From: an uncultured Aminicenantes bacterium
GTDB lineage: Bacteria > Acidobacteriota > Aminicenantia > UBA2199
DNA: 24,135 bases
Assembly: GCA_965195285.1 (NCBI GenBank)
Contig: CBDAFS010000047.1
Span: 1-24,135, forward strand
Direction of reading: 5' to 3'
Part shown: in pieces, positions 1,119-16,900 of the stretch
Layout of the letters: the number at the start of each line of letters is the position of its first letter
How positions within the stretch are numbered: the stretch's first letter is position 1
The notes under the pieces: model-generated
The model's input: the letters and a program-made list of their open reading frames with translations, nothing else
Told to the model about the DNA's origin: nothing
The model's database searches: none
Program-made: the position numbers and the translations under genes

Positions 1119-1820
1119 TTAAATACCTGAAGTGATTTTGAAAACATGGTCTGCCAACTGTCCGATGCGCTGGCTCATCCATTTCACCACCTGTTCGTCG
1201 TGGGAGATGAATACATAGCTGATATGTGTCTGTTCCTGGATTTGTTTCAATAGCCTGAGTATTTGGGCCTGGATGGAAATATCCAGGGCGGAAGTGGGTT
1301 CATCGAGCACAACAACCCGGGGTTTGAGCATCAGAATTCTGGCCAGGGTTGCCCGCTGGTTAATACCGCCGGATAGCTGCCAGGAAAGGTAATCCAGGAG
1401 CTGGAGCGGCAGGCCAACCTGATCACAGGTCTGTTTGATCAATTGATCGTGACCCTCTGGTTCCAGCCGGGTAATCAACCGGGTATCGGAAAGAATCCGG
1501 CCCAGGGTTTTTTTCGGATTCAGTGTTCCTTCCGGATCCTGAAACATCATCTGCACCTGGCTGCGAAAATGCCGGAACTCCGATGGCTTCAGGTTGTGGA
1601 TATTCTGTTGTAGAAAATTAACTTCACCGTCGGTGGGCCGGATTAACCCGGCAATGATTTTGCCCAGGGTGGTTTTTCCGGCACCGGATCTGCCCATTAT
1701 TCCAAGGGTTTGGCCCCTTTCAATTTCCAGCGATACGTCTTGAAACAGGGGATGCGGGAATTTGGTTCCCTTTAATTTGAAACCCATCCCGACCTGTTTT
1801 AATTCTAATAGAGATGACAT
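1119..1820 (-). CDS. Peptide/nickel ABC transporter ATP-binding subunit (DppF/OppF/NikE-like, short form)
   Basis: Walker A GRSGAGKT, Q-loop MMFQDP, signature LSGGINQR, Walker B VVVLDEPTSALD, H-loop ISHD. No C-terminal HPY/Cys extension. Confidence 0.92.
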   Translation of the reverse strand: MSSLLELKQVGMGFKLKGTKFPHPLFQDVSLEIERGQTLGIMGRSGAGKTTLGKIIAGLIRPTDGEVNFLQQNIHNLKPSEFRHFRSQVQMMFQDPEGTLNPKKTLGRILSDTRLITRLEPEGHDQLIKQTCDQVGLPLQLLDYLSWQLSGGINQRATLARILMLKPRVVVLDEPTSALDISIQAQILRLLKQIQEQTHISYVFISHDEQVVKWMSQRIGQLADHVFKITSGI

Positions 1821-2743
1821 TTCACTTTTCCTCTATCCAGGGTTTTTATTTCCGGTCTTTCCCGATTACAGAAGCCGAGCCGTTGGGGGCAACGGGGGTG
1901 AAATCGGCAACCGCCGGGCAATTGATCCAGGCTGGGGCTTTTGCCGGGTATGGGATGAAATCCCTTTTCAGGGCTTGAATCCAGCAGTGCCCGAGAATAG
2001 GGGTGCCGGGGATTACCAAAAAAAGAGTCATTCGGAGAAGTCTCGATGATCTCGCCGGCGTACATAACGGCCATTTGATCGGCAAGTCTCCGGGCCAGGT
2101 TGAGGTCATGGGTGATCAGGATTAAGGTAACCTGCTCAATCTGCTTGGCTTTTATCAATTCATTGATAATGATTTCCCGGGTAGAACGGTCCAGTCCCTT
2201 GGTGGGTTCGTCGGCGATAATGACCTCCGGTTTGGTCAGCAGGGCAGCCGCAATCAACAGCCTCTGCTTCATTCCTCCCGACAGCTGGTGGGGATACAGT
2301 TTTAAAATGGATTTCCCATTATCAAATCCCAATTTTTCAAGTATTTGCAGGATCTGATTCCGGGCCCGGTTTCGATTGGTCAGATGATGAATGATTAAAG
2401 GTTCGACCAGTTGGTTTTGGATGTTAATGACCGGATTTAAGGAAAGATCCGGATTTTGAGGGATAATGCAGATCCGGGTTCCCCGGATTTTTTCCATTTG
2501 AATTTCCTTCAGTTTCAGGAGATTGAGGCCATTTAGCTTGATTTTTCCGGAAACCCTGGCCTGCGGGTCCAAAATTCGGATAATGGACTTGGCAATGATA
2601 GATTTTCCGCAGCCGCTTTCTCCAAGAATAACCAGGGTTTGGTTTCCGGGACATTCGAGTGAGATATGGTCAACCACCCTGAGCAGGCCCTTGATGGTGG
2701 GGAAACTCACCTGCAGGTTTTTTATGAATAATCCTGATTTCAT
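1805..2743 (-). CDS. Peptide/nickel ABC transporter ATP-binding subunit (DppD/OppD-like)
   Basis: GESGCGKS, LSGGMKQR, IIADEPT, ITHD, and a C-terminal HPY motif plus CRFHPRC..C..C. Start placed at ATG 2743 (MKSGLF), which overlaps the upstream TGA by 1 nt, rather than at 2860. Confidence 0.93.
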   Translation of the reverse strand: MKSGLFIKNLQVSFPTIKGLLRVVDHISLECPGNQTLVILGESGCGKSIIAKSIIRILDPQARVSGKIKLNGLNLLKLKEIQMEKIRGTRICIIPQNPDLSLNPVINIQNQLVEPLIIHHLTNRNRARNQILQILEKLGFDNGKSILKLYPHQLSGGMKQRLLIAAALLTKPEVIIADEPTKGLDRSTREIIINELIKAKQIEQVTLILITHDLNLARRLADQMAVMYAGEIIETSPNDSFFGNPRHPYSRALLDSSPEKGFHPIPGKSPSLDQLPGGCRFHPRCPQRLGFCNRERPEIKTLDRGKVKCHLY

Positions 2744-3555
2744 CACAATTGATCTGTAGACTGGATGCGATTGTGGTGGGGTTCCAACCGGTATCCCAGC
2801 CACAATACAGTGAATACCACGGCCACAATACACAGTCCCGGCGGCAGGTACCACCACCATAGATTGTTGAAGAAGCCGCCCCTGGCAAAGGCAAAGTGGA
2901 TCATCATTCCCCAGCTCTTGGCAGATGTGTCACCCAACCCCAGAAAAGAAATTGATGCCTCGACAGTCATGGCCGTGGCCAGATTGATTAAAAATTTCGG
3001 AAAGACAACATCCTGCAGGTTGGGAAGGATTTCTGAAAAAATGATGTAACCGTGCTTGAATCCCAGACACTTGGCACTTTCAATGAACCCCGCTTCCCGC
3101 AACTGCTTGGTCTTACTGCGAACCACCAGACAGGTGGATGGCCACCATAGTACTCCCAGGATAATGGCTATCAACCAGTAATCGGGTTTGATAAAAGCGG
3201 CCAGGAGGATGAGCACCGGAATTTTGGGAATAACCAGGAATATATCAGTCAGCATTTGAACCAGACTGAGAATCTTACCCGGGAAATATCCGGACAGCAA
3301 TCCCAGCACCAGTCCGATTGAAGAAGAAACCGCTGCAGCAATCAATCCGACCATCAGTGATATTTTGGTTCCGGCTAACAGCTCCGAAAGAATGTCGTGG
3401 CCCAGGTCATTGGTGCCCAGGTAATGGCCATGGCTTGGCATTTGAAAGGCCTCAAAGCGCTTCCAGGGATCATGGGGGGCCAGCCAGTGGGTGAGCAGGG
3501 AGGTGACTATGAAGATCAGGCCAACCGTAATTCCCCATTTCAGAATCTTGTTCAT
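2743..3555 (-). CDS. Peptide/nickel ABC transporter permease (DppC/OppC-like)
   Basis: HYLGTNDLGHDILS, EAA loop FIESAKCLG, EASISFLGLG and SWG motifs, with several hydrophobic segments. Confidence 0.93.
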   Translation of the reverse strand: MNKILKWGITVGLIFIVTSLLTHWLAPHDPWKRFEAFQMPSHGHYLGTNDLGHDILSELLAGTKISLMVGLIAAAVSSSIGLVLGLLSGYFPGKILSLVQMLTDIFLVIPKIPVLILLAAFIKPDYWLIAIILGVLWWPSTCLVVRSKTKQLREAGFIESAKCLGFKHGYIIFSEILPNLQDVVFPKFLINLATAMTVEASISFLGLGDTSAKSWGMMIHFAFARGGFFNNLWWWYLPPGLCIVAVVFTVLWLGYRLEPHHNRIQSTDQL

Positions 3556-4502
3556 TTTGGTTTTCTGGTTCTGGGATCCAGCATCAGCTGCAGTCCCTCG
3601 GCGATCAGATTGGCCGCAATGACCATAAAGGTAATTGTCAGAAAGATACCCTGGATCAAGGGGTAATCCCGGCTTAGAATGGAATCATAAATCAGGGTTC
3701 CCATGCCATTCAGGGAAAACACGATTTCGATAAACAGGGCTCCGCTGAATAGGAATCCGAAATCGAGGGCAATCAGGGCGATCAGTGGCAATATGGCATT
3801 TTTAAAAACATGTCTGTTCAGTATTTGTCCGGCTGAAAGGCCCTTGGCCCGGGCATAAATGACATAGGGTTGGTCTTTCTCCAGTATTACACTTCCCCGC
3901 ATGATCAGGAAGTTTCGGGACAAAGAGATCAGGCTCAAAACCATAACCGGAAGCAGATAGTGCAGCAAAATGTCTTGGAACGATCCGCTCTGATAAAATC
4001 CCTTCATGGGAAATATATTCAGCTGAATGGAAAAAATATTCAGAACCATCATGGCCAGGAAAAATGCCGGTATGGAATAGAGAAAAATCAACGCATGGGT
4101 AAACAGGCGGTTTAATCGGGTTGGAGAGGTCCAGGCTGATCGGGCACCCAGGAAAATTCCCAGCAGAGCGCCGAAAAAAATCGAGGGCAGGAGCAATCCC
4201 AGGGTCCAGGGAATTCGGTCGATAATAATGGAGATCACTTTTTTTCGAAAATGGTAGGAATAACCGAAATCCATACGCAGCAAATCCCGGCAATAATATA
4301 AAAATTGAGCCGCCACCGGTTTATCCAGGCCCAATTCCCTTTTCAGGTTGTTCAGGGTTTCTTGATCAACCGATGCATCTTTACCCAGCAAATAGATCAT
4401 GGGATCTCCGGGCATGGCCCGGGGAATGACAAAATTCAAGATGATGATCACCAACAAAGTCAGGAAAATTCGGATGGTACGCTGTTTAAAGTTGGGCATC
4501 AT
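3552..4502 (-). CDS. Peptide/nickel ABC transporter permease (DppB/OppB-like)
   Basis: MPGDP, LGLDKP, DFGYS, YVIYARAKGL, IEIVFSLNGMG and RDYPLIQG motifs. ATGA overlap with the next gene. Confidence 0.93.
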   Translation of the reverse strand: MMPNFKQRTIRIFLTLLVIIILNFVIPRAMPGDPMIYLLGKDASVDQETLNNLKRELGLDKPVAAQFLYYCRDLLRMDFGYSYHFRKKVISIIIDRIPWTLGLLLPSIFFGALLGIFLGARSAWTSPTRLNRLFTHALIFLYSIPAFFLAMMVLNIFSIQLNIFPMKGFYQSGSFQDILLHYLLPVMVLSLISLSRNFLIMRGSVILEKDQPYVIYARAKGLSAGQILNRHVFKNAILPLIALIALDFGFLFSGALFIEIVFSLNGMGTLIYDSILSRDYPLIQGIFLTITFMVIAANLIAEGLQLMLDPRTRKPK

Positions 4503-6099
4503 TGAACTGAAGGTTGAGTAAGCTGTTTATGTTATAGATTCCAAAAAGCGGGTCATGATGCCAGCCGGAGAGATGGTGTTTCATGGGGATCACATCGGTT
4601 TTCCAGATCAGGGCAATAGCCGGTAAATGGCAAGCATAGTATTCCTGAATTTTCCGGGCCAGGGATTTGAGTTGAGCGGGAATTTTTGTGGCTAAAATAT
4701 TATCACATAAACCGATAAAATCCGGGTCATCCAGGGTATGCAGAACCCCTTCACCGGAACGGCGGCTGTCAAAGTACCCGGTGGCCCAGCCGGCATGCAT
4801 CATCATTCCCCAGGGAGTGGTCCGGCTGAGAGTCAGATCATATTTGTAGTTGTCTTTCATATTGACCCAGGAGGCCGGATCCAGTATTTGTAGACGGGTA
4901 CGGAGGCCAACCTGTTTCAGGTAATCGATTATCAATTCCCCCAGACGAATATAAATCGAGGTGGCCACCAGGTTGATTTTCAGTTGATTACCACCCGGAT
5001 CCTCTACAAAGCCATCTCCATTGACATCTCTGTAACCCGCATCTTCCAGCAGGGTTTTAGCCAGGCCAATGTTTTTGTGCAGGGATTCGGTGGGGTGATA
5101 GAACCTGAAATGGGACGGGATGAATCCCCTTCGGGGCAGGGCCCCATAATCACGGGCAATCAACCGGATGATCTCCGCATAGTCCAGTGCATACAATACG
5201 GCCAGCCGGAGTGATGAATCGGAAAAGGGAAATTTCTTCAGGTTGAATCCTAAGAAAACGAGGCCGTTCTGTTTGAAGGTCAGTATTTTAAAATGGCCGC
5301 TGGCTTTCAGGGAGTTGATATTTTCATATGGAAACGTATCGGCATATTTGTAATAGGTATCGACATCTCCTCTTTTCAGGGCCAGTGAAAGTACATCAAC
5401 GTTATGGTAGGTATGGATTTCAATTTGATTGATCCGGGGATTTGAACCCTTCCAGTATGGATTCCGGCAGAAGCGGATGATTCCCGAGTTCAGGTCTGCT
5501 TCCCGGATTATATAGGGGCCGCAGCCTGTATAGTACTTCCCGGATTCCCGGTCCCGGGGGTCTTTTATCCCCTGCCAGATATGCCGGGGAAAGATTCTGA
5601 TGGAAGCCAGCTCGATATCGAAGCGGGTATAGGGCTGGTTCAGGGTGCAGGTGACCTGATTCCCGGATATATCGATCTTTCTGATGATTGTACCCAGCCA
5701 TTTACGGAAGGGCAGATGGGTGTTTTTGTAAAGCAGTGTAAATTTGATATCTTCGGGTGAAACCGGATGACCGTCGCTCCAGTAATAATCCTGATTGATT
5801 TGAAAGGTCCAGGTTTTGTAATCAGCCGAATAGTGGTAATTTTTTGCCAATAACCCCATCGGATTTCCATCCAAACCGAGTTTGAGCAGGGGCGGGTGAG
5901 AGATTATGGAAAAAAGTGACAGTGATGGATCAAACAAAAGGTTCTGTGATTTGACCCGGTGGATGGTGCCGATCTTCACAATCCGGGTATTTTTTTCCTT
6001 TGTTTTTTGAGGAAGGCAATCGGACAGGAGCAGGGAAGAGATTATGATGAGCTGGATAAAAAAGGGATACGGCTTCTTGGTAAAAGATATTGGTAACAC
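4486..6099 (-). CDS. ABC transporter substrate-binding protein, family 5 (peptide/nickel), probably a lipoprotein
   Basis: SBP family-5 motifs (WSDGHPVSPEDIKFT, GCGPY, NPYWKG, LRLAVLYALD, LLEDAGY.D.NGDG) and a hydrophobic signal ending LLLSDC. The ORF is open to TTG 6138, but that TTG is part of a -35 box, so GTG 6099 is preferred. Confidence 0.9.
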   Translation of the reverse strand: MLPISFTKKPYPFFIQLIIISSLLLSDCLPQKTKEKNTRIVKIGTIHRVKSQNLLFDPSLSLFSIISHPPLLKLGLDGNPMGLLAKNYHYSADYKTWTFQINQDYYWSDGHPVSPEDIKFTLLYKNTHLPFRKWLGTIIRKIDISGNQVTCTLNQPYTRFDIELASIRIFPRHIWQGIKDPRDRESGKYYTGCGPYIIREADLNSGIIRFCRNPYWKGSNPRINQIEIHTYHNVDVLSLALKRGDVDTYYKYADTFPYENINSLKASGHFKILTFKQNGLVFLGFNLKKFPFSDSSLRLAVLYALDYAEIIRLIARDYGALPRRGFIPSHFRFYHPTESLHKNIGLAKTLLEDAGYRDVNGDGFVEDPGGNQLKINLVATSIYIRLGELIIDYLKQVGLRTRLQILDPASWVNMKDNYKYDLTLSRTTPWGMMMHAGWATGYFDSRRSGEGVLHTLDDPDFIGLCDNILATKIPAQLKSLARKIQEYYACHLPAIALIWKTDVIPMKHHLSGWHHDPLFGIYNINSLLNLQFNDAQL

Positions 6100-6109
6100 G
6101 GTTGGAATA

Positions 6110-6138
6110 ATCGTAGCACAACTGTCTGCCAATATCAA
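6110..6138 (-). promoter_or_regulatory. Sigma70-type promoter of the ABC operon
   Basis: On the minus strand: TTGATA (6138-6133), 17-nt spacer ending in TGn, then TACGAT (6115-6110), 10 nt before GTG 6099. Confidence 0.55.
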
Positions 6139-6180
6139 CCTGCGGGTTCGGCTTTTCTGTATACTATTTGAAATTCACGT

Positions 6181-6209
6181 TTGACATCTTGAAGAAAAAT
6201 AAATAGGAT
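6181..6209 (+). promoter_or_regulatory. Sigma70-type promoter of the metallophosphoesterase
   Basis: TTGACA (6181-6186), 17 nt, TAGGAT (6204-6209); ATG at 6216. Confidence 0.65.
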
Positions 6210-6215
6210 GAATGA

Positions 6216-7076
6216 ATGGAATATTTTTTTGTTAGCGATCTGCATGGAAATATTGAGAAATATGAAAAATTGTTTCATTCAATAGAAAAACAAATACCCG
6301 ATGCGGTTTTTATCGGCGGCGATATCCTGCCTCATTTTTCAGTACCGGCTCAAGGACTGGATTCAGATTCTAATGATTTTATAAATGATTACCTGGTGAA
6401 AAAAATGACAGATCTGAAAAACCGGTTAAATGATTCATACCCTCCTGTTTTTCTTATTCTGGGGAATGATGATGGTCGATTCAGGGAAACTGCTATTCTG
6501 GATGCAGCGGCTAAAGGTCTATGGCATTACTGTCATTCAAGGCGTTTTATTCTGGATAAATATAGAGTTTACGGGTATGCTTATGTTCCTCCGACTCCAT
6601 TTCGTTTAAAAGACTGGGAACGCTATGATGTATCACGGTATACTGATCCCGGTTGTATTCCTATTGAAGAGGGAGTTTTTTCCCACCCGGTTTCGGAGTC
6701 TGAAAAAATGTATACCACTATTAGCGATGATCTGAAAAAGCTTGCGAATGATGATCCCATGGATAATGCCATTTTCCTCTTTCATACACCGCCCTACAAG
6801 ACCAATCTGGATCGGGCGGCACTGGACAACAAAAAAATAGATTATGTTCCCCTGGATGTTCACGTGGGAAGTATTGCGGTTAAACGTTTTATCGAAGAGC
6901 GGCAGCCACTGATTACCTTGCATGGCCATGTCCATGAATCAGCCCGAATCACAGGTTTCTGGAATGATCGGATCGGCCGAACCCATGCATTTTCCGCGGC
7001 CTATGATGGAAAGGAGCTGGCATTGATTCGCTTTAATCCCGAACAACCTGAAAGAGCCAGCCGGCAACTGCGGTGA
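6216..7076 (+). CDS. Calcineurin-like metallophosphoesterase (Icc-related)
   Basis: Five metal-binding motifs: SDLHG, GGD, GNDD, FHTPP, HGHVHE; 286 aa. Confidence 0.9.
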   Translation: MEYFFVSDLHGNIEKYEKLFHSIEKQIPDAVFIGGDILPHFSVPAQGLDSDSNDFINDYLVKKMTDLKNRLNDSYPPVFLILGNDDGRFRETAILDAAAKGLWHYCHSRRFILDKYRVYGYAYVPPTPFRLKDWERYDVSRYTDPGCIPIEEGVFSHPVSESEKMYTTISDDLKKLANDDPMDNAIFLFHTPPYKTNLDRAALDNKKIDYVPLDVHVGSIAVKRFIEERQPLITLHGHVHESARITGFWNDRIGRTHAFSAAYDGKELALIRFNPEQPERASRQLR

Positions 7077-7088
7077 AATAATGGCAGG

Positions 7089-10000
7089 TCAGGTTGTTTG
7101 TTGATCCTTGAGGGGTAAGGGCATTGCCGCATCGGTTACCGCACCAATTTTAGCTGCATAACTGGTCTTATTTTTGATATCTTCATCAGTAACCAAATGG
7201 ACATCCAATAATCCATCGGTTTGGTACCCGGTTTTGAGGTAATTTTGTTCTGCCAGGGTTAAGCTCCAGCCTTCAAGCCAGTGTTGAAGCGCTTCTTTCT
7301 GTTTAGCAGATCCATTAAAATGAATCAGGAGATCAATATCACTGGCCGGTCCTGCTGTGGCATTTTTGGTGCTGCCAAAAACATATAACCCTTTTACCCC
7401 GAATCGTTCGGGATCCAAACCGGATGCGATTTTTTTTACCATGTGTATTCGCCAGAGCCAAAAGTCATTGTCCAGTTTTTTGGCAGGTTCTTTTTCATCC
7501 GAAGAATATATGAGGGTACCGGTTGAAGGTTCTGATAAAAAACCGATGGCTTCTTCGAGATCCGCATTCATTAAAACACGAAGGATCATACCCTCATTGG
7601 TTTTCGGAACATCAATCACGTGAATTACCTTTTCCAGTGAAGAACATTCCGGGAGAATTTGCTTGAGTATGTTTTTCGAAGACAGAAAAAACCTTTCATT
7701 GAATACAACCTTTTCATCATCAGGATATAAAGGTAGATACCGGATGGAAGACTCCACCAGATCCTGGAAGAAATGGGTTCCGAAAGATAGATCGGGGATA
7801 TAGTTGCCCTTCTTTCTGGCGATTTCGATCAACATTGCGGTATTGTTTATGTCGGAATAGGTGACATTTACCCCCAGTTTGATATCACCTCGACTCCCCC
7901 AGCGTCCCGGTCCCATCAGGATAAACTGGCGTTTGGGTAAAACCTTGTTTAATCGTCCAACGGTTCGCCCGATTGATTTTAATTCGGAGAGATCGGGAAT
8001 ATCATTGTAGGTGTCGGGATTCACATAAACAATATGGGTAATATCCGGGACATGGCCATTTGATATAAAACGATTGGCAGAAAAAATAATTTCATTTTCC
8101 GGGATATCCTTGGGAATGGGAGCCGGTGAAATTTCTTTTGAAAAACTTTGGGGTCGACACTGAAGTAAATAAAAATCTGTGCCATCATGAGCAAATTCAA
8201 TATCCACAGGGGTGTTCATTTTTTCCTTTAAAACGGTTAATAATTGTTTCATCCGGATAATGAAGGGGGTCTTATTCAACAGACCTTCAAAGGTAACGAT
8301 CAGATTATTTTGATCAAAATCGATTCCCAGAATAGAAGTGGCGGTGGTAAAAAGATTATCCTGAAGAATGGATACCATATTTTCAATTCCCGGTATATCG
8401 TTTCCGACATTCTTGAGCAATTCTTTGATTTCCACACTTTCGAACCGGTTGCTTTCCAGGTTAATCACATCGAGCATCTTGGGGGAATAATGAGCGGTTT
8501 CATCAGGGGTTAAATTAATCCGATAATCGGGGTTTCCCGGAGAAATCAGAACCGGGTAATCATTGACCACCCGGTCCACTGCCCGGGTTCCCAATCCCGG
8601 CACCAGCCGGACCAGTCCATCTTCCCTTTGAATGCGGGTGGACCATCGGAATTCATTGTTACTGAAGGCCACGCCGGCAAAAGTGGGAAAGAAATATTGC
8701 CCCACCCGTTTTCCCACCACCTCTTGCAGTAAGATGCCCATTTCTTCCTGGAAGTCCAGCAATCCTCTTTCTTTACGGTATTCGATAGGGTCGGGGGCAA
8801 AAATGGATGCATATACCTCGGAGATGGCATCAAACAAGGCATCCAATCGCTGTTGTTTGGTCCCCTGATTGGCTAAGAATAAACTTTTATATTTTCCGGA
8901 AAATGCCGAACCAAGGCGATCCTCTAATAAACTGGAGCTACGGACAATTATGGGTTTATCCCCGAAATCATCCAGTGCCAGAGACAGGCCTTTTACCATT
9001 TCCGGCGGGAAATATGAATTTTTAAAGATCTGAATGATATTCGGGTAATCATAATGAATTTCATCGGTTTCCTTATATTTCTGTTCATAAATATTTTCGA
9101 GATTATTATACCTGAGGAAACTAATGATCCCATCGGTGCTGATATACCAGGTTTTTGGTATTTTAATATTTTCTTTTAGCTCCGGAAATTGGGTTTCCTT
9201 TTCGACAATTTTGGATGCCAGGAATAAGCCCGCGCTTTTTCCTCCCAATTTTCCATTACTATCGGCAGGAGATATGATCCTCTGAACGATATCATGGTAA
9301 TCACGAACTTCAGTATATTTCTTGGTGATGTTTATTAATTCCAGTTGATCAAAGAAAAATCGACGAGTCAATGATACCCGTAGTCCTTTGTCTATGGCTG
9401 GAGATAGTTTTACACCTTCCGAATCGAGATGCTGATAGCGGGAAAGGGCTTCAATAATATCTGATAAAGAAGATCTTGAATCATCGATGGCACGGACCAG
9501 GAAACGCGAACGGTCTTCGGCAATCCATTTTTGAATACTGGACATAATAATATCCTTGTTCAGATGATTGGCTGCGATGTTAAAGATATCATCACTGATT
9601 GTCATAACTTTATCCAGGGCTTCTTTTTTCAGCGGGCGGTTGAGTTCCTCGGAAATATCTTCTCCTTCGAAATTTTGATCAATGGTGATTTTTTCCAGTA
9701 ACTGTTTGGCGCTTTCCACTCCGATCCAGCACAGGTGATAAAGCATTTTTTGGGAAATATTGATATAAAGATTTTTTTCTGATTTTTTAAGGAGTTCTAT
9801 GATGGGTTTCCACTCATTTTTACTGTCCATGCTCTCTTGAAGACCGTTATCCTGTTTCTGGGTAATTTTCTGTTTTAATTCTTTGGACCAGATGAATTGG
9901 GCAATACGGTCCGAAATGGTATTGAGCAGTTTTGTCTCCTCTTTTAAAAAATATACGTCTTTCTTGTTGCCGGGTTCTTGAATATAGGAGACGGTTATTT

Positions 10001-10286
10001 TTCCATATTGAGCTTTGCTGGTTTTGATCTCGGCAGTCTGGTGCCTGTGGTTTTCCAGAAAGCCAGGAGACTGGATGACTTTATCATTCAGAAGGATCCG
10101 GATACGGCATATTTCCGGATATTGCCATCCGGAGGGTATAATTTTTATGATTTTTTCCAGGGTTTTATCCAGATCGGATTCAGTATCTCTCAATTGTTCT
10201 TCAATCTGGTATAAACAATTGAGTTCTTTCACCCGTTCTTTATAGCCTGCTATCAGTTTATTCTGATTTTTTTTTTGCCGGGTCAT
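7089..10286 (-). CDS. Multidomain protein: GAF-like N-terminus + PEP-synthase/PPDK-type ATP-grasp + putative phospho-His domain + C-terminal nucleotidyltransferase
   Basis: ATP-grasp motifs LGGK (aa 347-350), VRSSSLLED, FSGKY, PGLG, DIEFA, LLQCRP (Q709); then GPGRWGS and SFGTHFF (H838); pol-beta-type NTase motif G971-S-x10-D983-I-D985 with a later LLDVHLV; N-terminal ERVKELNCLY...PSGWQYPE segment. Confidence 0.85.
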   Translation of the reverse strand: MTRQKKNQNKLIAGYKERVKELNCLYQIEEQLRDTESDLDKTLEKIIKIIPSGWQYPEICRIRILLNDKVIQSPGFLENHRHQTAEIKTSKAQYGKITVSYIQEPGNKKDVYFLKEETKLLNTISDRIAQFIWSKELKQKITQKQDNGLQESMDSKNEWKPIIELLKKSEKNLYINISQKMLYHLCWIGVESAKQLLEKITIDQNFEGEDISEELNRPLKKEALDKVMTISDDIFNIAANHLNKDIIMSSIQKWIAEDRSRFLVRAIDDSRSSLSDIIEALSRYQHLDSEGVKLSPAIDKGLRVSLTRRFFFDQLELINITKKYTEVRDYHDIVQRIISPADSNGKLGGKSAGLFLASKIVEKETQFPELKENIKIPKTWYISTDGIISFLRYNNLENIYEQKYKETDEIHYDYPNIIQIFKNSYFPPEMVKGLSLALDDFGDKPIIVRSSSLLEDRLGSAFSGKYKSLFLANQGTKQQRLDALFDAISEVYASIFAPDPIEYRKERGLLDFQEEMGILLQEVVGKRVGQYFFPTFAGVAFSNNEFRWSTRIQREDGLVRLVPGLGTRAVDRVVNDYPVLISPGNPDYRINLTPDETAHYSPKMLDVINLESNRFESVEIKELLKNVGNDIPGIENMVSILQDNLFTTATSILGIDFDQNNLIVTFEGLLNKTPFIIRMKQLLTVLKEKMNTPVDIEFAHDGTDFYLLQCRPQSFSKEISPAPIPKDIPENEIIFSANRFISNGHVPDITHIVYVNPDTYNDIPDLSELKSIGRTVGRLNKVLPKRQFILMGPGRWGSRGDIKLGVNVTYSDINNTAMLIEIARKKGNYIPDLSFGTHFFQDLVESSIRYLPLYPDDEKVVFNERFFLSSKNILKQILPECSSLEKVIHVIDVPKTNEGMILRVLMNADLEEAIGFLSEPSTGTLIYSSDEKEPAKKLDNDFWLWRIHMVKKIASGLDPERFGVKGLYVFGSTKNATAGPASDIDLLIHFNGSAKQKEALQHWLEGWSLTLAEQNYLKTGYQTDGLLDVHLVTDEDIKNKTSYAAKIGAVTDAAMPLPLKDQQTT

Positions 10287-12040
10287 GTCAATATCACTCC
10301 TTGTTTTTTCCTTCCATCTACCTTTATGGTAAGTGGCGAGCGCAGATGGATATGCCTTACAAATTCTGTCTCATCGACTGTTTGCTGGATTTTCAGCCAG
10401 TTCCAGTCAAATGTCGATGTTTCCGACTGATTTAAAGAGAAATAGAGAATTTTCAGGTTTGAAATATTGTGGAAAAAATGAGATCCCTGGCTTAAATCCA
10501 CATGGATATTTTCCAATTTTGCCTCAACAATGGCCCGGGCACCGGATACTTGCCCCCACTCAACCGGAATCCCCAACCAGGGATCACTGCTTCCCAATCT
10601 GCCGAAAATCATTAAAAGAAATGGCTGGTTGTTCTTAATTAACGACCGGTTCATCTGTTCCAGTTGTTTGGCAATAGCCCGGGAATATTTGAAATCAAAT
10701 TTGTCCGGTTTCACATAAACAATATCCTGGATACTGCTCTGGATTCCATTTCCCAGAACATTGACGGAGTTCAGAATACAATTTTTCCCGTTTATTTCAT
10801 CAGTATGAATGGAAACCATTTCCAGGGAGATATTGATTGGCCTGATCTGCAATAAACCGAAACCGGATAAATTATGTGATCGGGTGGGGAATGTCATGGC
10901 AAATTCAATTTCCACTTTGGCCTTAAAATAGGTTTCACATAATTGAAGTATGTTTTTAATGACTTGATTCAGAGGAATCTGATCGAGTTCCAGAATAGGA
11001 GCAAAATTAATGATCCGGGGGCCTTTGGAGCTGGTGCCGATATTGATGCGGTCTGAGGCCGGATCATAGGTGGAAGCGATATATTTCAAGGTATTATCAT
11101 ATTCCGCATCTCCCAGATGCAAGAGGGTTAAATATTCAATTTCTTTGATGGGATCGTATGCGGGAAGTTTTCCCATATTAACCGCCCAGAATTCATTCTG
11201 TGTTTGCTTCAACTGATCATTGATGGTATTAAACGGGGGGCTGATGTGTGGGTATTCGGGGGAATATGACCAGGCCATACCGCCATCCACGATGGTTTTA
11301 CCAAGACCCAGTGCCAGGCTGACAATCCCATCCTCTGGTTTTGCTTCTCCGATGGGATAGAAATTATAACTGCGGCCAACTCCCGATAGGTTGGGGTAAA
11401 ATCGATTAGCATGTTTTTGGCCCACTACTTTTTGAATGATGACTGCCATTTTCTCCAATTCTAACCGGTTTCCCGTGGATTTCATATAATTCCTGGCATT
11501 TCTAAAAAAAGTGGACGCATAAATGAATTTGATGGCCTCTGCCAGTTTGCGGAACCGGCTGCTGGTATCGGATTGGTTATTGGGGATCATTTTGGTTTGG
11601 TACACACCGGCAAAAGGTGAATCGAGACTGTCTTCCAGCAAGCTGGATGAGCGGATGGCCAGTGGTGTATTGGTTTTGCTGATCAGTGATCTGAGATCTC
11701 CATTTAGCAGTGGGGGTAATTCGGATTTTTGAAAATGATGGGCTAATTTTTCATCGCTCATTTCGAGGCCAACAATATCGTACAAATGATTCATCTCCAT
11801 AAATTGGTCAAAAAAAGAAGTGGTAATGATTGTCAGGGGAGGAATTCCAATTTCAACTTCATCAACCGGGTGTCCGGAGGTGAAAGATCCAAGATAATTC
11901 TTGATTTTAGCCAGACCATGGGCTTTACCTCCTAACTCTCCATTTCCCATATAACAAAAATGGTTAACGGATTCAGATGCATTTCTTTGGAATGAGGTGA
12001 TACCTGTCTGTTGCGATAAATTCTTTTTTCTTGCCATCAC
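10283..12040 (-). CDS. PEP-synthase/PPDK-type ATP-grasp domain protein without a pyruvate-binding barrel
   Basis: LGGK (aa 36-39), IRSSSLLED, FAGVY, ALGLG, EIEFA, LLQIRP (Q398), then FGRLGS and SQGSHFF (H521). Start GTG 12040 or ATG 12037. ATGA overlap with the 1065-aa gene. Confidence 0.85.
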   Translation of the reverse strand: MMARKKNLSQQTGITSFQRNASESVNHFCYMGNGELGGKAHGLAKIKNYLGSFTSGHPVDEVEIGIPPLTIITTSFFDQFMEMNHLYDIVGLEMSDEKLAHHFQKSELPPLLNGDLRSLISKTNTPLAIRSSSLLEDSLDSPFAGVYQTKMIPNNQSDTSSRFRKLAEAIKFIYASTFFRNARNYMKSTGNRLELEKMAVIIQKVVGQKHANRFYPNLSGVGRSYNFYPIGEAKPEDGIVSLALGLGKTIVDGGMAWSYSPEYPHISPPFNTINDQLKQTQNEFWAVNMGKLPAYDPIKEIEYLTLLHLGDAEYDNTLKYIASTYDPASDRINIGTSSKGPRIINFAPILELDQIPLNQVIKNILQLCETYFKAKVEIEFAMTFPTRSHNLSGFGLLQIRPINISLEMVSIHTDEINGKNCILNSVNVLGNGIQSSIQDIVYVKPDKFDFKYSRAIAKQLEQMNRSLIKNNQPFLLMIFGRLGSSDPWLGIPVEWGQVSGARAIVEAKLENIHVDLSQGSHFFHNISNLKILYFSLNQSETSTFDWNWLKIQQTVDETEFVRHIHLRSPLTIKVDGRKKQGVILT

Positions 12041-12053
12041 GTCTTTTTAGCTT

Positions 12054-12062
12054 ATTTTACCA
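12054..12062 (-). promoter_or_regulatory. Possible extended -10 promoter for the dikinase-like gene pair
   Basis: TGgTAAAAT on the minus strand, 13 nt upstream of GTG 12040. No clear -35 box or SD. Confidence 0.35.
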
Positions 12063-12141
12063 TAAAGTTTAAAAAGATATGGTTCATCACAGGTGAGGGT
12101 GATAAATTCAATAAGAAACAGAGGTTTTATTCAGAATGATA

Positions 12142-13422
12142 TTAGACCCAGCCCCGGCTCTTACAGGCTGAAGCGACCCGGTCAATGGCAATTACGTAGG
12201 CGGCGTCTCGCATGTACAACTTTTTTTTCTCGGCCAGTTCGTGTACGGAAATAAATGCTGCGGTCATTTTGTTATCCAACCTGCCTAAAACATCATCTTT
12301 TTCCCAATAATAATTCATATTGCTCTGAACCTGTTCAAAATAACTGCAGGTAACACCCCCGGCATTGGCTAAAAAATCAGGTATCATAAATATCCCCCGT
12401 TCCTGAATAACCTTATCTGCTTCTATTGTTGTGGGGCCATTGGCTCCTTCTGCAATTATTTTGACTCCGGGTTTCACCTTTTGAATACTCTCCTGATTGA
12501 TTCCGTTCTCCAGTGCTGCCGGGATCAATATATCCACATCCTGTTCAATCCAGGCTTCTCCGGATAGAACCTCATAACCGAGGCTCTGGGCCTTGGATTT
12601 TTCGATACCACCAAAACTGTCTGTAATCGGTTGAAGTTCCTCCAGTCTGACGCCTTCCATTTTTTTGTAAGTATAAGCCTGATTATCCTTTTGGTCCCAG
12701 CAGGAAACCGCAATGACCTTGCCACCGATTTGGGAATATAATTGAATGGCGTACTGGGCCACATTTCCGAATCCCTGAACACTGGCTGTGGTGTCTTCCG
12801 GTCTGATATCCAAATCCTTCAGTGCCTCTCGAATCACAAAGACAACACCATAACCGGTGGCTTCGGTCCTTCCGAGCGAACCGCCCATTCCAATGGGTTT
12901 GCCGGTAATAAAACCGGGATATTTGGCACCGTGAATGGTTTCATATTCATCTAACATCCAGAGCATGTGCTGGGCACTGGTCATGACATCCGGAGCCGGC
13001 ACATCGGAAAACGGACCCACATTCTTGGCCATTTGGCGCACCCACCCGCGGCACAGTCGCTCCTGTTCTCTGGGGGTGAGGTTATGCGGATCACAGATTA
13101 CACCGCCCTTTCCTCCTCCGAGCGGAATATCCACCACCGCACATTTCCAGGTCATCCACATGGCTAAAGCCCGGACCGTATCAATGGTTTCCTGAGGATG
13201 AAAACGAATGCCACCTTTACCGGGTCCCCGGGCATCGTTATGCAAGACCCTGAAACCTCGAAACACATCAACCTCTCCGTTATCCATCGCAACCGGAATA
13301 TTAAAATGAAATTCCCGGGTTGTATTTCTGAGTAATTTCCGGGTGGCGGGTTCCAGGTTTAACATTTCAGCAACTTTGTCAAACTGGGCCTGAGCGGTTT
13401 CAAATGGATTGTATTGCGGCAT
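12142..13422 (-). CDS. gdhA: Glutamate dehydrogenase (Glu/Leu/Phe/Val dehydrogenase family)
   Basis: GPGKGGIRFHP, MTWK, GGGKGG, DVPAPD, GKP..GGS.GR..ATG, Rossmann VQGFGNVA, EGANGP, PD..ANAGGVTCSYFE. SD AGGAGG (13435-13430) is 7 nt upstream of the ATG. Confidence 0.95.
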   Translation of the reverse strand: MPQYNPFETAQAQFDKVAEMLNLEPATRKLLRNTTREFHFNIPVAMDNGEVDVFRGFRVLHNDARGPGKGGIRFHPQETIDTVRALAMWMTWKCAVVDIPLGGGKGGVICDPHNLTPREQERLCRGWVRQMAKNVGPFSDVPAPDVMTSAQHMLWMLDEYETIHGAKYPGFITGKPIGMGGSLGRTEATGYGVVFVIREALKDLDIRPEDTTASVQGFGNVAQYAIQLYSQIGGKVIAVSCWDQKDNQAYTYKKMEGVRLEELQPITDSFGGIEKSKAQSLGYEVLSGEAWIEQDVDILIPAALENGINQESIQKVKPGVKIIAEGANGPTTIEADKVIQERGIFMIPDFLANAGGVTCSYFEQVQSNMNYYWEKDDVLGRLDNKMTAAFISVHELAEKKKLYMRDAAYVIAIDRVASACKSRGWV

Positions 13423-13459
13423 TTTGTTCCCTCCTGTTTGCCTGTTTTTTGTAAGTCAA

Positions 13460-13488
13460 ATTATAACGTAAACCCGGAAGTAAGGCAA
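13460..13488 (-). promoter_or_regulatory. Sigma70-type promoter of gdh
   Basis: TTGCCT (13488-13483), 17 nt, TATAAT (13465-13460). Confidence 0.7.
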
Positions 13489-13510
13489 TACAAAAAGTTT
13501 ATTTTGTGGA

Positions 13511-13834
13511 CTATACCGTGGCTTTGGGAATTTTACGCTTCAGACTGTGAAGCTGTCGCCTGACCCTTTTCAGTTGAACATGATCATGATCCGCCAGTGC
13601 CTGTTCCCGTTTCTTCTTTAGCACCCTGATCTTCTTTTTAATCGAGGGCTTGTCAACACCGGCCACTTCATGATGCTGATGGAGTTCAATATTAAGGGCC
13701 TTGCATAAGGCAGTTAAAAGATGTTCTTTATTCAGCCGGGTGTATCCCTTGACTGCTTCGTGATCGGTCTCCTTGGCAATTCCCCGCAGTTCGGCTACGG
13801 TTTTTTTCTTGAGTTCTTCATAGGTATGGGCCAT
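13511..13834 (-). CDS. Small basic protein with a Rho N-terminal-like helical domain and a coiled-coil tail
   Basis: ELKKKTVAELRGIAK...GYTRLNKEHLL matches the Rho_N pattern; His-rich linker; Lys/Arg-rich C-terminal helices; AAGGAG SD upstream. Confidence 0.7.
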   Translation of the reverse strand: MAHTYEELKKKTVAELRGIAKETDHEAVKGYTRLNKEHLLTALCKALNIELHQHHEVAGVDKPSIKKKIRVLKKKREQALADHDHVQLKRVRRQLHSLKRKIPKATV

Positions 13835-13871
13835 GGTTCATTTCTCCTTTTTTCCAATCAAATAAAATTTA

Positions 13872-13901
13872 ATTCTAATATATTCGGGGGAATATTGTCA
13901 A
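13872..13901 (-). promoter_or_regulatory. Sigma70-type promoter with a palindromic spacer
   Basis: TTGACA (13901-13896), 18 nt, TAGAAT (13877-13872). The spacer contains ATATTC-N4-GAATAT (13880-13895). Confidence 0.55.
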
Positions 13902-13922
13902 CACCGGTGTGAGGTCTGTAAA

Positions 13923-16900
13923 TCAGAGGTTACCGGCTCTTGTCCGGTTGAAGATAAAACCTTGCAGCTTGTAAAACAGGTAGTAGAAAATGGGGAGCAC
14001 GAATAAAATGAAAAAGGCAGAGGTGGTGAGCCCGCCAACCGTACACAATGCCAGTGATGACCAGATATCGGAAGCATCGGCTTTTTTTAAAATAATCAGG
14101 GGAAGCATTCCCAGGACCGTGGTGGCTGAGGTCATGAAAATAGGCCTGATTCTTTCCTTGGCCCCGATGGAGATCGATTCAATGATATTCTTGGTCTCCC
14201 GGAGGTGGCGGTTGATGTTATCGATCAATAGAATGGAATTGTTCACCACAATACCGGCTAGCAGGATACAGCCGATATAGGCAGTGGAATCAAACGAGTA
14301 ATCCATAATGACAAAAGCGTAAAAAACCCCGATGAGGGCCAGGGGAATGGAAATCATAATGAGGATGGGCTGGAAGAAATTTTCATAGAGTATTCCCAGC
14401 AACAGGTATATCAAAACAGCTGATAACAGTATGGCACTCCAGAGCTGACTCACTTCTTCCTCGGTGATTCGAAATTTCCTCTCTTCCAGGCTTTTTTTGA
14501 AGCCTACCGGAACTTTCAGGTTGTTGAAAATGGTTTTGTGATATCGGTCACCGGCCTTTGATGATCCCAGGTAATCCCATCTGAGCATGGAAACATATTC
14601 CTGGTTCTCCCGGGTAATACCTCCTTTTTGAGTGGATAGTTCGATATCCACCAGATCCTTGATTCGAAAGGGAATGCCGGCCTGGGTCTCCAGATTCATG
14701 GTTAGGATATCATCCAGTTCCAGGTCCTCCACATCCATGGATTTTATTTCCAGGGAGAGTTCCTTGTCGTCGAATTTCAGTTTCTGGGTTCCGGAACGTT
14801 CCATGAGTACAGAGGAAATCAGGTAAAAAAGATAGCGGGGAGACATCTGATAGGATCTGAGTTTTTCCCGGTCCAGCTTAAAGGCAAAATACTTCTCCTT
14901 CCCCCCCCACCAGAAATCCATATCGGTTTGGATATCCACATCCTTTATCCGCCTGTGGTGAAGCATACTCCGTTTCACATCATTGGAATAATCCATTAAC
15001 TTTTCGAAATGATATCCCTTTACCTGAATATTGTAGGGGAGGAAAGATCCGGTATCCGGATTGTAATAATAGGGTTCGGGGTCAAAGCCGCCCACATACA
15101 CCCCGATTCCGGCCAGGTTAGTGGCCAGCCCGACCAGCTCCTGTTTGAGTTGAAGGGGAAAAGCGGAAAACTCTATCTCTTCGGGAAAGGTGATGACCAT
15201 ACGAGCACCACGGTAGTAGCCGCTGTATATCTGGGTGGTGATTTCCTTTTCATAGGGTTTGGCAAGGGCCAGGTCCTCGAATTTTTTTATGGCTTTTTTC
15301 ACATCATTGAATTCGGCTCCGGATGGAAACCGCAGGCTGACTTCGATTTTCTCTTTTGAATACCAGGAAAAGAAACGTCCGAACGATACCTCTTTTTTAA
15401 AGACTGAATAGGAAAAAAACATCAGACAGAAAACCGGGATGAGCACCACCAGCGGGTATTTCAGAATAAAAGGGAAAAATTTTCCCCTTCTGAAAAACAA
15501 ATTTTTGGCTTTGACCTTCAGGGTGATTCGGGCCCCCAGCGAGGGGATAAGCAAAAAGGAAACAATGATTGAAGAGATCAGGGAAATGGTAATCACATAG
15601 GCCAGGGGTAGATAGTATAGCTTCAGGCGGCCCTGAAACAGGGCAAAAGAGAAGAAAACAATTATCGTGGTCAGGGTTGATGAGAGAACCGGAAGAATGA
15701 CTGCTTTTGCCCCCTGAATGGCAGATTCCTTCTTGTCCAATCCCTTTTCCCGGTGTCTCAGGATGCTGTCAAATACCACCACGGCATTGTCGACGAAAAG
15801 TCCGAAACCCAGGGCCAGTCCGGACAAGGTTAGCAGATTCAGGGGGATTTTCAGAAGATAAATGACGGTAAAAGTGGTGAATACTGAAAAGAAAACCGAA
15901 GAAAAAATCAGAATGGAGGCTTTTATATCTTTTATGATGATCATTAATATAATAAAAATAATAATTAGAATGAGAAAAGCGATCTTCAGCAGCCGGACCA
16001 GCCTGTCTTTCAGCTCTTTGCTTTCATCGTGCTGGATGATGAATTCGATTTTCCCCCCCAGCTTATTGGTCAGGTATTGAAGCTTTTCCCGGATCTTCTC
16101 GGAAAGTTTCAGTGAACTGTAATTGGGTTCTTTATAGATGATGAATCCGATGACCGGCATTCCCATGAATCTCATCTCATAGCGTAATTCCTCGTAACCC
16201 AGATACACATCGGCGATCTCTTTTAGCCGCATCTGTTTGGCACCGAAATTTTTAACCACAATATTTTGAATATCCTGAATTTTCTGCGGGGATTCTGATA
16301 ATGAAAGGGTGATCTCGGAACCGGTTTTTTTCAAGGTTGCCGATTGAACAGTATAGAAACATTCATTTATTTTTTGCTGGATTTCAAACAGGCTGATTCC
16401 GAATCTTTTGAGTTTGTCCAGGTTGGTTTGAATTTTGATCTGTGGTTCAACTCCTCCCCAGATCATCACCGATTCGATCCCGGATATTGAATTCAGGTAA
16501 GGATAGATTTCCTTGTCGGCAATTCTTCTCAAGGCATAGATAGAATGCTTGCCATAAACACCCACCTTGAAGAAGGGCTCTTTTTTAAATTCCTCGGGGA
16601 TATTCTTTTGAATCTCAGGTTTCTGCACCTGGGAGGGAAGCTCTTTCTGAAGCCGGTTCAATCTTTCCCGCAGAATAACCTCGGCAAAATTCATTTTGGT
16701 TTTCCGGGTAAATTCAACCTTGATGGTTCCCCGGTTCTGGGTGGAACGGCTTTTCAGTTTTTCGACGCCCTTGATCTGCATGATTTCTTCTTCGGCCGGT
16801 ATTAAAATCTTTTTTAAAATATTATCCGGGGATGCGCCCCACCAGTTGTAGATGATTTCCAGGGTGGGGAGGTCCTCTTCCGGGACCAATTCAATGGGGG

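Follow-up and report, generated by a model that had tools for sequence, protein, structure and literature searches.

Introduction

Nucleotidyltransferases (NTases) of the DNA polymerase beta (pol-beta) type bind two metal ions through the carboxylates of a DxD...D motif and move a nucleoside monophosphate (NMP) from a nucleoside triphosphate (NTP) to a hydroxyl group; the minimal members of the group carry no substrate-binding domain of their own. In nitrogen metabolism, GlnD and GlnE use a pol-beta-fold NTase to write a nucleotidyl mark that a phosphohydrolase removes, with a ligand sensor setting the direction. Control by nucleotidylation is textbook knowledge for glutamine synthetase, and glutamate dehydrogenase (GDH) is an enzyme at which carbon and nitrogen metabolism meet. 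Here we analyze contig CBDAFS010000047.1 of an uncultured Aminicenantes bacterium (assembly GCA_965195285.1; all 24,135 nucleotides, hereafter the window), and in it a protein of 1065 amino acids (aa), hereafter the target, in which a minimal NTase is joined to a GAF-fold sensor and a dikinase-like core within a gene cluster that begins with GDH.

The closest working analogy is GlnD, a regulator of nitrogen metabolism that unites an NTase as writer with a phosphohydrolase as eraser and a domain that senses ligands. GlnD is reported to uridylylate the PII protein at Tyr51 (PMC3612183). For the NTase domain itself the nearest relatives are MntA and other minimal nucleotidyltransferases (MNT); MntA, the minimal NTase whose substrate is defined, is reported to be a protein adenylyltransferase acting on the protein with which it is complexed (PMC7641770). 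The core finds its closest precedent in VadK (Rv1127c) of Mycobacterium tuberculosis, reported to be a truncated pyruvate phosphate dikinase (PPDK) and regulatory histidine autokinase, which undergoes autophosphorylation at His422 and associates with methylcitrate-cycle enzymes (PMC13400623); on that description it is a barrel-less PPDK-type ATP-binding protein that regulates metabolic enzymes and does not make phosphoenolpyruvate (PEP). Rifampin phosphotransferase (RPH), PEP synthase and PPDK also share with the target a PPDK_N ATP-grasp domain followed by a His-bearing domain. Two Pfam domains of the target are already annotated in public databases, and full-text searches, with subscription journals mostly outside their reach, returned no paper on a protein joining PPDK_N to an NTase or on a module of NTase, metallophosphoesterase and GAF domain, no experimental characterisation of the target family, and no report of nucleotidylation of, or of such a covalent switch on, bacterial GDH.

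Results

A minimal NTase forms the C-terminus of a dikinase-like protein

The C-terminus of the target reads GLYVFGSTKNATAGPASDIDLLIHF and then DGLLDVHLVTDEDI, and contains the string LYVFGS-TKNATAGPAS-DID, in which ten residues separate G971 and S972 from D983 and D985, followed by LLDVHLV with D1028. An initial annotation, made from the letters of the window alone, had picked out these motifs at positions 7089-7460 (residues 942-1065) and read them as a pol-beta/MNT-type NTase with an intact acidic triad, fused to a PEP-synthase-like ATP-grasp protein and without a HEPN partner nearby, and each of these points held when profiles, structures and relatives were consulted. In Pfam, residues 960-1022 match NTP_transf_2 (PF01909; E 2.6e-08, 34.5 bits against a cut-off of 21), with Polbeta scoring slightly below its cut-off (25.7 against 26.9 bits), and the ATP-grasp part matches PPDK_N (PF01326; 192 bits, E 2e-56). 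We aligned the last 335 residues of the target with the same part of 76 relatives from named genome contigs; each of these C-terminal thirds (77/77) matches NTP_transf_2, and the catalytic positions are nearly invariant (G971, D983 and D1028 in 77/77, S972 in 76/77, and D985 in 75/77, the other two having Asn).

The fold agrees with this assignment. In an AlphaFold2 model of residues 731-1065 the mean predicted local distance difference test score (pLDDT) is 89.6, and the four best matches of the NTase domain by VIA, a comparison independent of Foldseek, are minimal NTases (1wot, Z 7.5; 8xeh_E, 7.3; 2rff, 7.3; 1no5, 7.0), with moderate Z values and alignments of 97-104 residues over chains of 98-111 residues (root-mean-square deviation, rmsd, 3.2-3.7). 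In Foldseek, too, minimal NTases are among the best PDB rows, together with NTases that act on aminoglycosides or lincosamides (2rff, AAD(9) 6xz0, HEPN-MNT 8xeh, HI0073 1no5 and 1wot; E 1e-3 to 2.5e-2). The profile match, the invariant catalytic residues and the moderate fold scores together confirm that residues ~940-1065 are a true minimal pol-beta-type NTase and, judging from its residues, the domain is apparently catalytically competent.

With MntA and other MNT proteins (8xeh, 7ae9, 1no5, 1wot, 2rff) the domain has in common its fold, its size (~100-125 residues), the hG[GS]-x10-DxD motif and the third Asp. Its score with the NCBIfam MntA equivalog (NF047752) is only 20.2 bits, the cut-off being 60, and the GlnE and GlnD family models of Pfam and NCBIfam gave no match at E up to 1; by these profiles it is neither an MntA equivalog nor a GlnE or GlnD domain. 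Pfam found no HEPN domain in the 15 scanned open reading frames (ORFs) of at least 100 aa in the window; the immediate neighbors of the target gene are a metallophosphoesterase gene and a PPDK_N paralogue, and they abut it (a 4-nt overlap upstream, 12 nt between stop codons downstream), leaving no space for a further gene.

The NTase is a separable module

Searching one sample of 151 genomes from the phylum of the window with three queries, we found matches to the whole protein (E <= 1e-50) in 43 genomes, to the NTase region (E <= 1e-15) in 22, and to the adjoining phosphoesterase (E <= 1e-30) in 18. Whole-protein matches took three forms: full length, residues ~8-920 (GAF domain and core), and residues ~150-920 (neither GAF domain nor NTase). 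The distribution of the NTase is nested in that of the core: each of the 22 genomes with the NTase also has the core, 17 of them with the fused form and 5 with a separate NTase gene, and 21/43 core-bearing genomes have no NTase at all. At 16 loci of NTase-less variants we detected neither NTase-like sequence (0/16; tblastn, E <= 1e-4) nor phosphoesterase (0/16), and a GDH of at least 67% identity was present at 10 of them, two of the other six being cut by a contig end. Such NTase-less cores are 43-52% identical to the target with unchanged core motifs, GPGRWGSRGD, SFGTHFFQDLVE and RSSSLLED being kept in each one examined (14/14). Since they retain both their motifs and their GDH, the chemistry of the core and its linkage to GDH are independent of the NTase.

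The NTase is also found apart from the core. A search of 1.84 billion representative proteins with its region gave 403 matches with E <= 1e-3, and 79 when the threshold was E <= 1e-30. They form a compact clade in which, besides fragments, lengths of about 1060, 1640, 285 and 130-155 aa prevail. Three free NTases from this search measure 134-153 aa (P0404, P0451, P0374). Among the free NTases of the 151-genome sample, those at the two loci scanned match NTP_transf_2 with 24.0 bits (a 140-aa ORF) and 23.8 bits (cut-off 21), and two that were aligned keep GSTKNATAGPxSD[IL]DL and LD[VL]HLV[TN]D. In mini-proteins of ~285 aa (P0410, P0490), a GAF domain of the type found in the target is fused straight to the NTase, and the catalytic residues are kept in free-standing and GAF-fused forms alike. 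The 120 shorter relatives listed for the NTase region were fragments or splits of the same family, ESM Atlas look-ups returned fragments of this family only, and a sample of 201 genomes from the phylum of another family locus (L076) contained only full-length fused forms (12/201). The NTase is an autonomous, separable module, newly recognised here.

A metallophosphoesterase accompanies the NTase

Downstream of the target, a convergent gene encodes a metallophosphoesterase whose orthologues co-occur strictly with the NTase in the 151-genome sample: they are present in 18/22 NTase-bearing genomes and in 0/129 genomes without the NTase, of which 21 have the core. In the five genomes with a free-standing NTase, its gene invariably (5/5) lies 21-193 nt from that of the phosphoesterase, convergent with it and far from the GDH-core cluster. 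For the fused form, 68 loci extend 1 kb or more downstream; the phosphoesterase occurs within 1.6 kb on that side in 38 of them, and is convergent in 33.

The GAF-NTase fusions show the same association. A metagenome scan with P0410 yielded 23 loci, in 17 of which a GAF-NTase was matched from its first residues; among these 17, 14 matched to the end, L130 and L135 start at residues 5 and 10, and L133 is cut by a contig end at residue 243. Directly after the GAF-NTase gene and on the same strand follows a phosphoesterase orthologue (47-58% identical to that of the window) in every locus with enough downstream DNA (14/14); three others (L123, L133, L136) end at a contig edge and stand outside these 14. 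At one such mini-operon locus the genes further downstream are guaA, a LysM/binding protein gene, a GDH gene of the E. coli type (32% identical to the GDH of the window) and an extracytoplasmic function (ECF) sigma factor gene, with no dikinase-like core nearby.

The sole NCBIfam match of the phosphoesterase is a weak one to a YfcE-type phosphodiesterase, and the PDB sequences gave no match at E up to 1. No fusion of NTase and phosphoesterase was present among nine odd-length matches scanned with Pfam, several of which resemble chimeric gene calls (Mur_ligase_C, LysR). At two metagenome loci, L137 (7043-8425) and L142 (7043-8139), the GAF part of the mini-protein is directly followed by a phosphoesterase gene with no NTase-like sequence between them; this could be a derived mini-operon that lacks the NTase, or the outcome of a deletion.

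A GAF-fold sensor, an ATP-grasp domain and a His-bearing domain precede the NTase

The N-terminal part of the target (residues 1-146) has a GAF fold. All of the 50 VIA rows listed for it (50/50) are GAF domains or GAF-containing sensor modules, most of them named GAF in their titles, from 3cit_B at the top (Z 12.6, 123 residues aligned, rmsd 2.3) down to a lowest Z of 8.0, with those of PtsP (3trc, Z 10.7) and NifA (8jrc, Z 10.6) among them. Foldseek, run on the model of this region (pLDDT 82.8), is further evidence for the fold, and the Pfam sequence search gave no GAF match in these residues. In the ATP-grasp domain that follows an unassigned, all-helical region (helices over residues ~160-335), the RSSSLLED motif is conserved. 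Between the middle domain and the NTase lies a tether that is the only part of the C-terminal model with pLDDT below 50 (model residues 193-206), and in which the alignment has no consensus residue.

The middle domain is the best conserved part of the protein, with GPGRWGS (792-798), G800, D801, the whole of SFGTHFFQD and therein T837 and H838 present in 77/77 aligned relatives, and R799 in 76/77. No Pfam family matches it, and PEP-utilizers (PF00391), the family of canonical dikinase swivel domains, was matched by none of the 77 family members at E up to 10. Its hhalign probability against 20 canonical PEP-utilizers swivel domains, taken from the genome of the window and its relatives, was 0.4%. 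The fold matches in VIA are weak, with Z 5.5 for the DRTGG domain 2ioj, 5.3 for the C-terminal domain of pyruvate kinase (2e28) and 5.2 for the His domain of RPH (5hv1_A 761-867; 104 residues aligned, rmsd 3.4). In the SCOP classification, most of the matches (the pyruvate kinase C-terminal domain, the RPH His domain, RraA, putative cyclases, the transferrin-receptor apical domain and MccF) are 'swivelling beta/beta/alpha' folds. As a canonical phosphohistidine domain the region thus failed by both the hhalign profile and Pfam, and a weak likeness in fold remains. We call it only 'His-bearing', because it has no Pfam family, no profile similarity to swivel domains and weak fold matches; it is of unassigned family and stands at the position of the phosphohistidine domain of dikinases, with which it may or may not be identical.

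In contrast to RPH, PEP synthase and PPDK, the target has no match to PEP-utilizers or to the TIM barrel PEP-utilizers_C, and the best of the NCBIfam dikinase equivalogs reaches 50 bits against cut-offs of 598-883. By these profiles the protein as a whole is not a PEP synthase, PPDK or RPH. From VadK it differs in that the middle domain lacks similarity to the PEP-utilizers profile and that the linked enzyme is GDH.

The target belongs to a conserved GDH cluster

The family is widespread. Of 7999 candidate protein clusters that were scored, more than 7974 matched the target at E <= 0.001, and relatives among the 120 listed were 53-92% identical to it (55-92% over the full length) and nearly all full-length. 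Their sources span more than 15 phyla in all and include Aminicenantes, Ignavibacteria, Zixibacteria, Planctomycetota, Acidobacteriota, Calditrichia, Myxococcota, Bacillota, Spirochaetes, Cloacimonadaceae and others.

Upstream of the target, with its stop codon overlapping the start codon of the target (ATGA) in a manner indicating translational coupling, lies the gene of a 585-aa paralogue that has the PPDK_N domain and the same His-bearing domain and is 29% identical to the target over target residues 344-853. This partner family keeps RSSSxxED and SxGxHFF with an invariant His521, and the partner in the window has a Ser-His pair there. Relatives of ~1630 aa (P0011, P0012 and others) have the length and Pfam content of a partner-target fusion, as do open frames of 1559 and 1676 aa in two sampled contigs (G013:C6 and G150:C27); partner and target are probably fused in the ~1630-aa relatives, as judged from lengths and Pfam content of unaligned sequences. 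This apparent single polypeptide in several lineages supports partner and target acting as one complex.

The first gene of the cluster encodes an ordinary hexameric-type GDH, whose closest PDB relatives are the Pyrococcus and Thermococcus enzymes (E about 1e-118). Gene neighborhoods were sampled at 80 loci, all of them in species-representative genomes. Upstream of the target and on its strand, 69/80 loci have a GDH that is 56-84% identical to that of the window, as do 55/59 of those with at least 3.3 kb of upstream DNA; the 585-aa partner is present in 56/72 loci with enough upstream DNA, and GDH directly adjoins the target in 15. The cluster GDH is extremely conserved (mean column identity 80% over 63 sequences). 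A predicted complex of GDH with residues 731-1065 gave ipSAE values of 0.00, 0.42 and 0.01 against a mark of 0.32, in runs without controls, and was counted neither way. Metatranscriptome contigs from two libraries of one study cover pieces of all four genes, though contigs can neither show transcription nor rank the genes, and a scan of positions 6000-14000 found promoter-like and terminator-like sequences at numbers near those of shuffled DNA (23 versus 16.8 ± 3.9 and 9 versus 9.5 ± 3.0, respectively).

Other associations of GDH were encountered. Several loci (L010, L014, L016, L034, L059; L115, L116) have a further paralogous pair close to the main cluster, consisting of a GDH-like gene 30-35% identical to the GDH of the window beside a PPDK_N protein 37-41% identical to the 585-aa partner, which suggests that the pairing of GDH with dikinase-like proteins arose or was kept more than once. 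Some 40 proteins of ~1100 aa (P0268-P0308) fuse a GDH (33-37% identical to that of the window) to phosphoglycerate kinase (PF00162); where named, they come from Scalindua and other Brocadiia/Planctomycetota.

In the flanks of the cluster, at 1119-6138 (minus strand), lies an Opp/Dpp-type ATP-binding cassette (ABC) peptide transporter (SBP_bac_5, two permeases and two ATPases), and at 13923-21486 (minus strand) a resistance-nodulation-division (RND) efflux set with an HlyD-type adaptor and two AcrB-type pumps; the solute-binding protein, the sole transporter or efflux gene of the flanks that was searched, had no homologue in the 80 related loci. Between the RND genes and gdh, a 107-aa ORF (13511-13834, minus strand) scores 24.6 bits with Rho_N (cut-off 24.9) and likewise has no homologue in the 80 loci. 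A 320-aa ORF (23118-24080, minus strand) joins Y1_Tnp, an IS200-like/REP-associated tyrosine transposase domain, to a DnaA C-terminal helix-turn-helix, and scores 71 bits with NF047646 against a cut-off of 80.

Table 1. Positions in the window of the target gene, its parts and the neighboring genes of the cluster.
Feature	Position	Strand	Basis
Metallophosphoesterase, convergent, proposed partner of the NTase	6216..7076	plus	Metallophos, E 9e-11
Whole target gene, 1065 aa	7089..10286	minus	ORF call and Pfam
Minimal pol-beta-type NTase, residues ~940-1065	7092..7469	minus	NTP_transf_2, VIA
D1028 codon (third carboxylate, LLDVH)	7203..7205	minus	
D983-I984-D985 codons (DxD metal ligands)	7332..7340	minus	
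G971-S972 codons (hG[GS] motif)	7371..7376	minus	
Disordered variable tether, residues 923-936	7479..7520	minus	pLDDT, alignment
His-bearing middle domain, residues 731-922	7521..8096	minus	GPGRWGSRGD, SFGTHFFQD (His838)
PPDK_N ATP-grasp domain, residues 346-730	8097..9251	minus	PF01326, RSSSLLED motif
All-helical region, residues ~147-345	9252..9848	minus	AlphaFold2 secondary structure
N-terminal GAF-fold sensor, residues 1-146	9849..10286	minus	VIA and Foldseek on model
585-aa paralogue, PPDK_N and the same His-bearing domain	10283..12040	minus	ATGA overlap with target
Glutamate dehydrogenase, first gene of the conserved cluster	12142..13422	minus	Pfam; 1gtm, E 1.3e-118

Discussion

We tentatively favor, at slightly less than an even chance, a model in which the NTase and the phosphoesterase form a sensor-controlled pair of writer and eraser whose target is some protein of the system linked to GDH. 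The tethered NTase would write a reversible nucleotidyl mark, probably AMP, on a GDH-linked protein, either the dikinase-like proteins themselves or GDH; the adjoining binuclear-metal phosphoesterase of the calcineurin type would erase it; and the GAF domain would supply the input that sets the balance between the two. We arrive at this model because the NTase is nested in core-bearing genomes, because it is fused directly to GAF domains, because its tether is flexible and because the phosphoesterase is constantly adjacent. The domain, its intact active-site residues, its separability and its strict co-occurrence with the phosphoesterase are observed; transfer of an NMP to a protein hydroxyl would follow the known chemistry of MNT, aminoglycoside nucleotidyltransferase (ANT) and GlnE-type enzymes, and reversal by the phosphoesterase, the nature of the acceptor protein and that of the ligand sensed by the GAF domain are presumed along with it. 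The more specific proposal of a GlnD/GlnE-like pair that reversibly nucleotidylates GDH or its accompanying dikinase-like proteins, as a covalent switch in many mostly uncultivated phyla, appears possible to us, but we would sooner expect it to fail than to hold. Compared with GlnD and GlnE, the target has no family match, its proposed eraser is a separate calcineurin-like phosphoesterase and not an HD domain, and its sensor is a GAF and not an ACT domain.

Several results weigh against the writer/eraser model. Four of the 22 NTase-bearing genomes (G022, G056, G074, G106) have no phosphoesterase match, and 30/68 fused loci have no phosphoesterase within 1.6 kb. The counts overstate independence because the sampled genomes are related: four of the five genomes with a free NTase belong to one genus, the mini-operon loci possibly represent few lineages, and most carriers are metagenome-assembled genomes. 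Comparison of NTase-bearing with NTase-lacking lineages revealed no Ser, Thr, Tyr or His in the core that is specific to the former, and in GDH it gave only T211, just before GxGxxG (64/67 versus 1/7, the seven NTase-lacking sequences coming from few lineages); as a way of naming the acceptor residue, this analysis of specificity positions yielded nothing convincing. No protein fusing GDH to a dikinase was found, as PF01326 is carried by 0/120 of the listed among 138 longer GDH relatives, a negative made weak by the word-based nature of the search. In addition, a YfcE-like phosphodiesterase could equally degrade a free nucleotide, the hosts of the GAF-NTase mini-operon may lack the dikinase-like core altogether, and the activity of the NTase is itself a prediction, with AMP as its probable nucleotide.

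The same pair of enzymes might instead act on a small molecule, which they would synthesize and degrade or else reversibly modify. It could be a signal derived from a nucleotide, or a metabolite from glutamate or 2-oxoglutarate metabolism that becomes nucleotidylated, and the GAF domain would gate synthesis. The operon of GAF-NTase and phosphoesterase, which stands without an obvious protein-substrate gene beside it, the weak YfcE-type match, and the presence of AAD(9), AadA, ANT(4') and LinB among the best fold matches are all consistent with this. We nevertheless consider it unlikely, since the ~125-residue domain lacks the second, substrate-binding domain of the aminoglycoside and lincosamide NTases (chains of 250-267 residues), its four best VIA matches are minimal NTases of ~100 residues that include the MNT of a HEPN-MNT complex (8xeh_E), and in the sampled phylum the NTase occurs only in core-bearing genomes (22/22); MntA, a minimal NTase of the HEPN/MNT kind, is moreover reported to modify a protein (PMC7641770). 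Still less probable, in our judgment, is a relay in which a single catalytic cycle couples the NTase to the ATP-grasp and His-bearing domains of the same polypeptide, the NTase perhaps nucleotidylating the Thr837-His838 loop or using the product of a dikinase-like reaction. A fusion kept in more than 15 phyla, a flexible tether that would let the NTase reach the other domains, a Thr/Ser-His pair conserved in target and partner families alike, and the lack of any sampled genome with the NTase but without the core would fit such a cycle, and the initial annotation had proposed a bifunctional or relay enzyme. However, 21/43 core-bearing genomes keep the motifs and GDH linkage without any NTase, and the NTase occurs as a separate protein or with GAF alone; as core and NTase are separable, an obligatory coupled cycle is excluded. 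The protein may still be bifunctional, and regulatory modification of the core in trans is compatible with the data and overlaps with the writer/eraser model. That annotation had been drawn up without the three features that tell most about function, namely the GAF sensor, the GDH cluster and the metallophosphoesterase found with the NTase whatever the architecture.

Domains that serve for binding alone usually lose their catalytic residues. A role of the NTase as a non-catalytic nucleotide-binding or scaffolding module, which would accord with its dispensability in many lineages and with a catalytic activity that is predicted from sequence, therefore seems very improbable given that the Gly and the three carboxylates are kept in 75-77/77 relatives across many phyla and also in free-standing and GAF-fused forms. 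That the domain serves as the MNT half in a module of the toxin-antitoxin or defence kind, or nucleotidylates antibiotics, is a reading to which we attach next to no credence. The domain does resemble MNT antitoxins and ANT enzymes in fold and sequence, and residues 960-997 give partial matches to the PDC-S09 models of PADLOC, but unlike MntA it has no HEPN gene beside it, falls far below the MntA cut-off, is linked to GAF and paired with a metallophosphoesterase, and stands in a chromosomal metabolic context that is conserved across phyla, besides having no second substrate-binding domain.

Proteins of this family go under database names such as 'pyruvate, water dikinase', which the analysis corrects. 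The separable NTase and its phosphoesterase partner recast what had looked like a fusion of two enzymes as a small, testable system composed of three modest-sized proteins, a GAF-NTase, a phosphoesterase and a candidate substrate. If the more specific GlnD/GlnE-like proposal is true, it would mean that a central enzyme of carbon and nitrogen metabolism is under the control of a covalent switch in many, mostly uncultivated, bacterial phyla.

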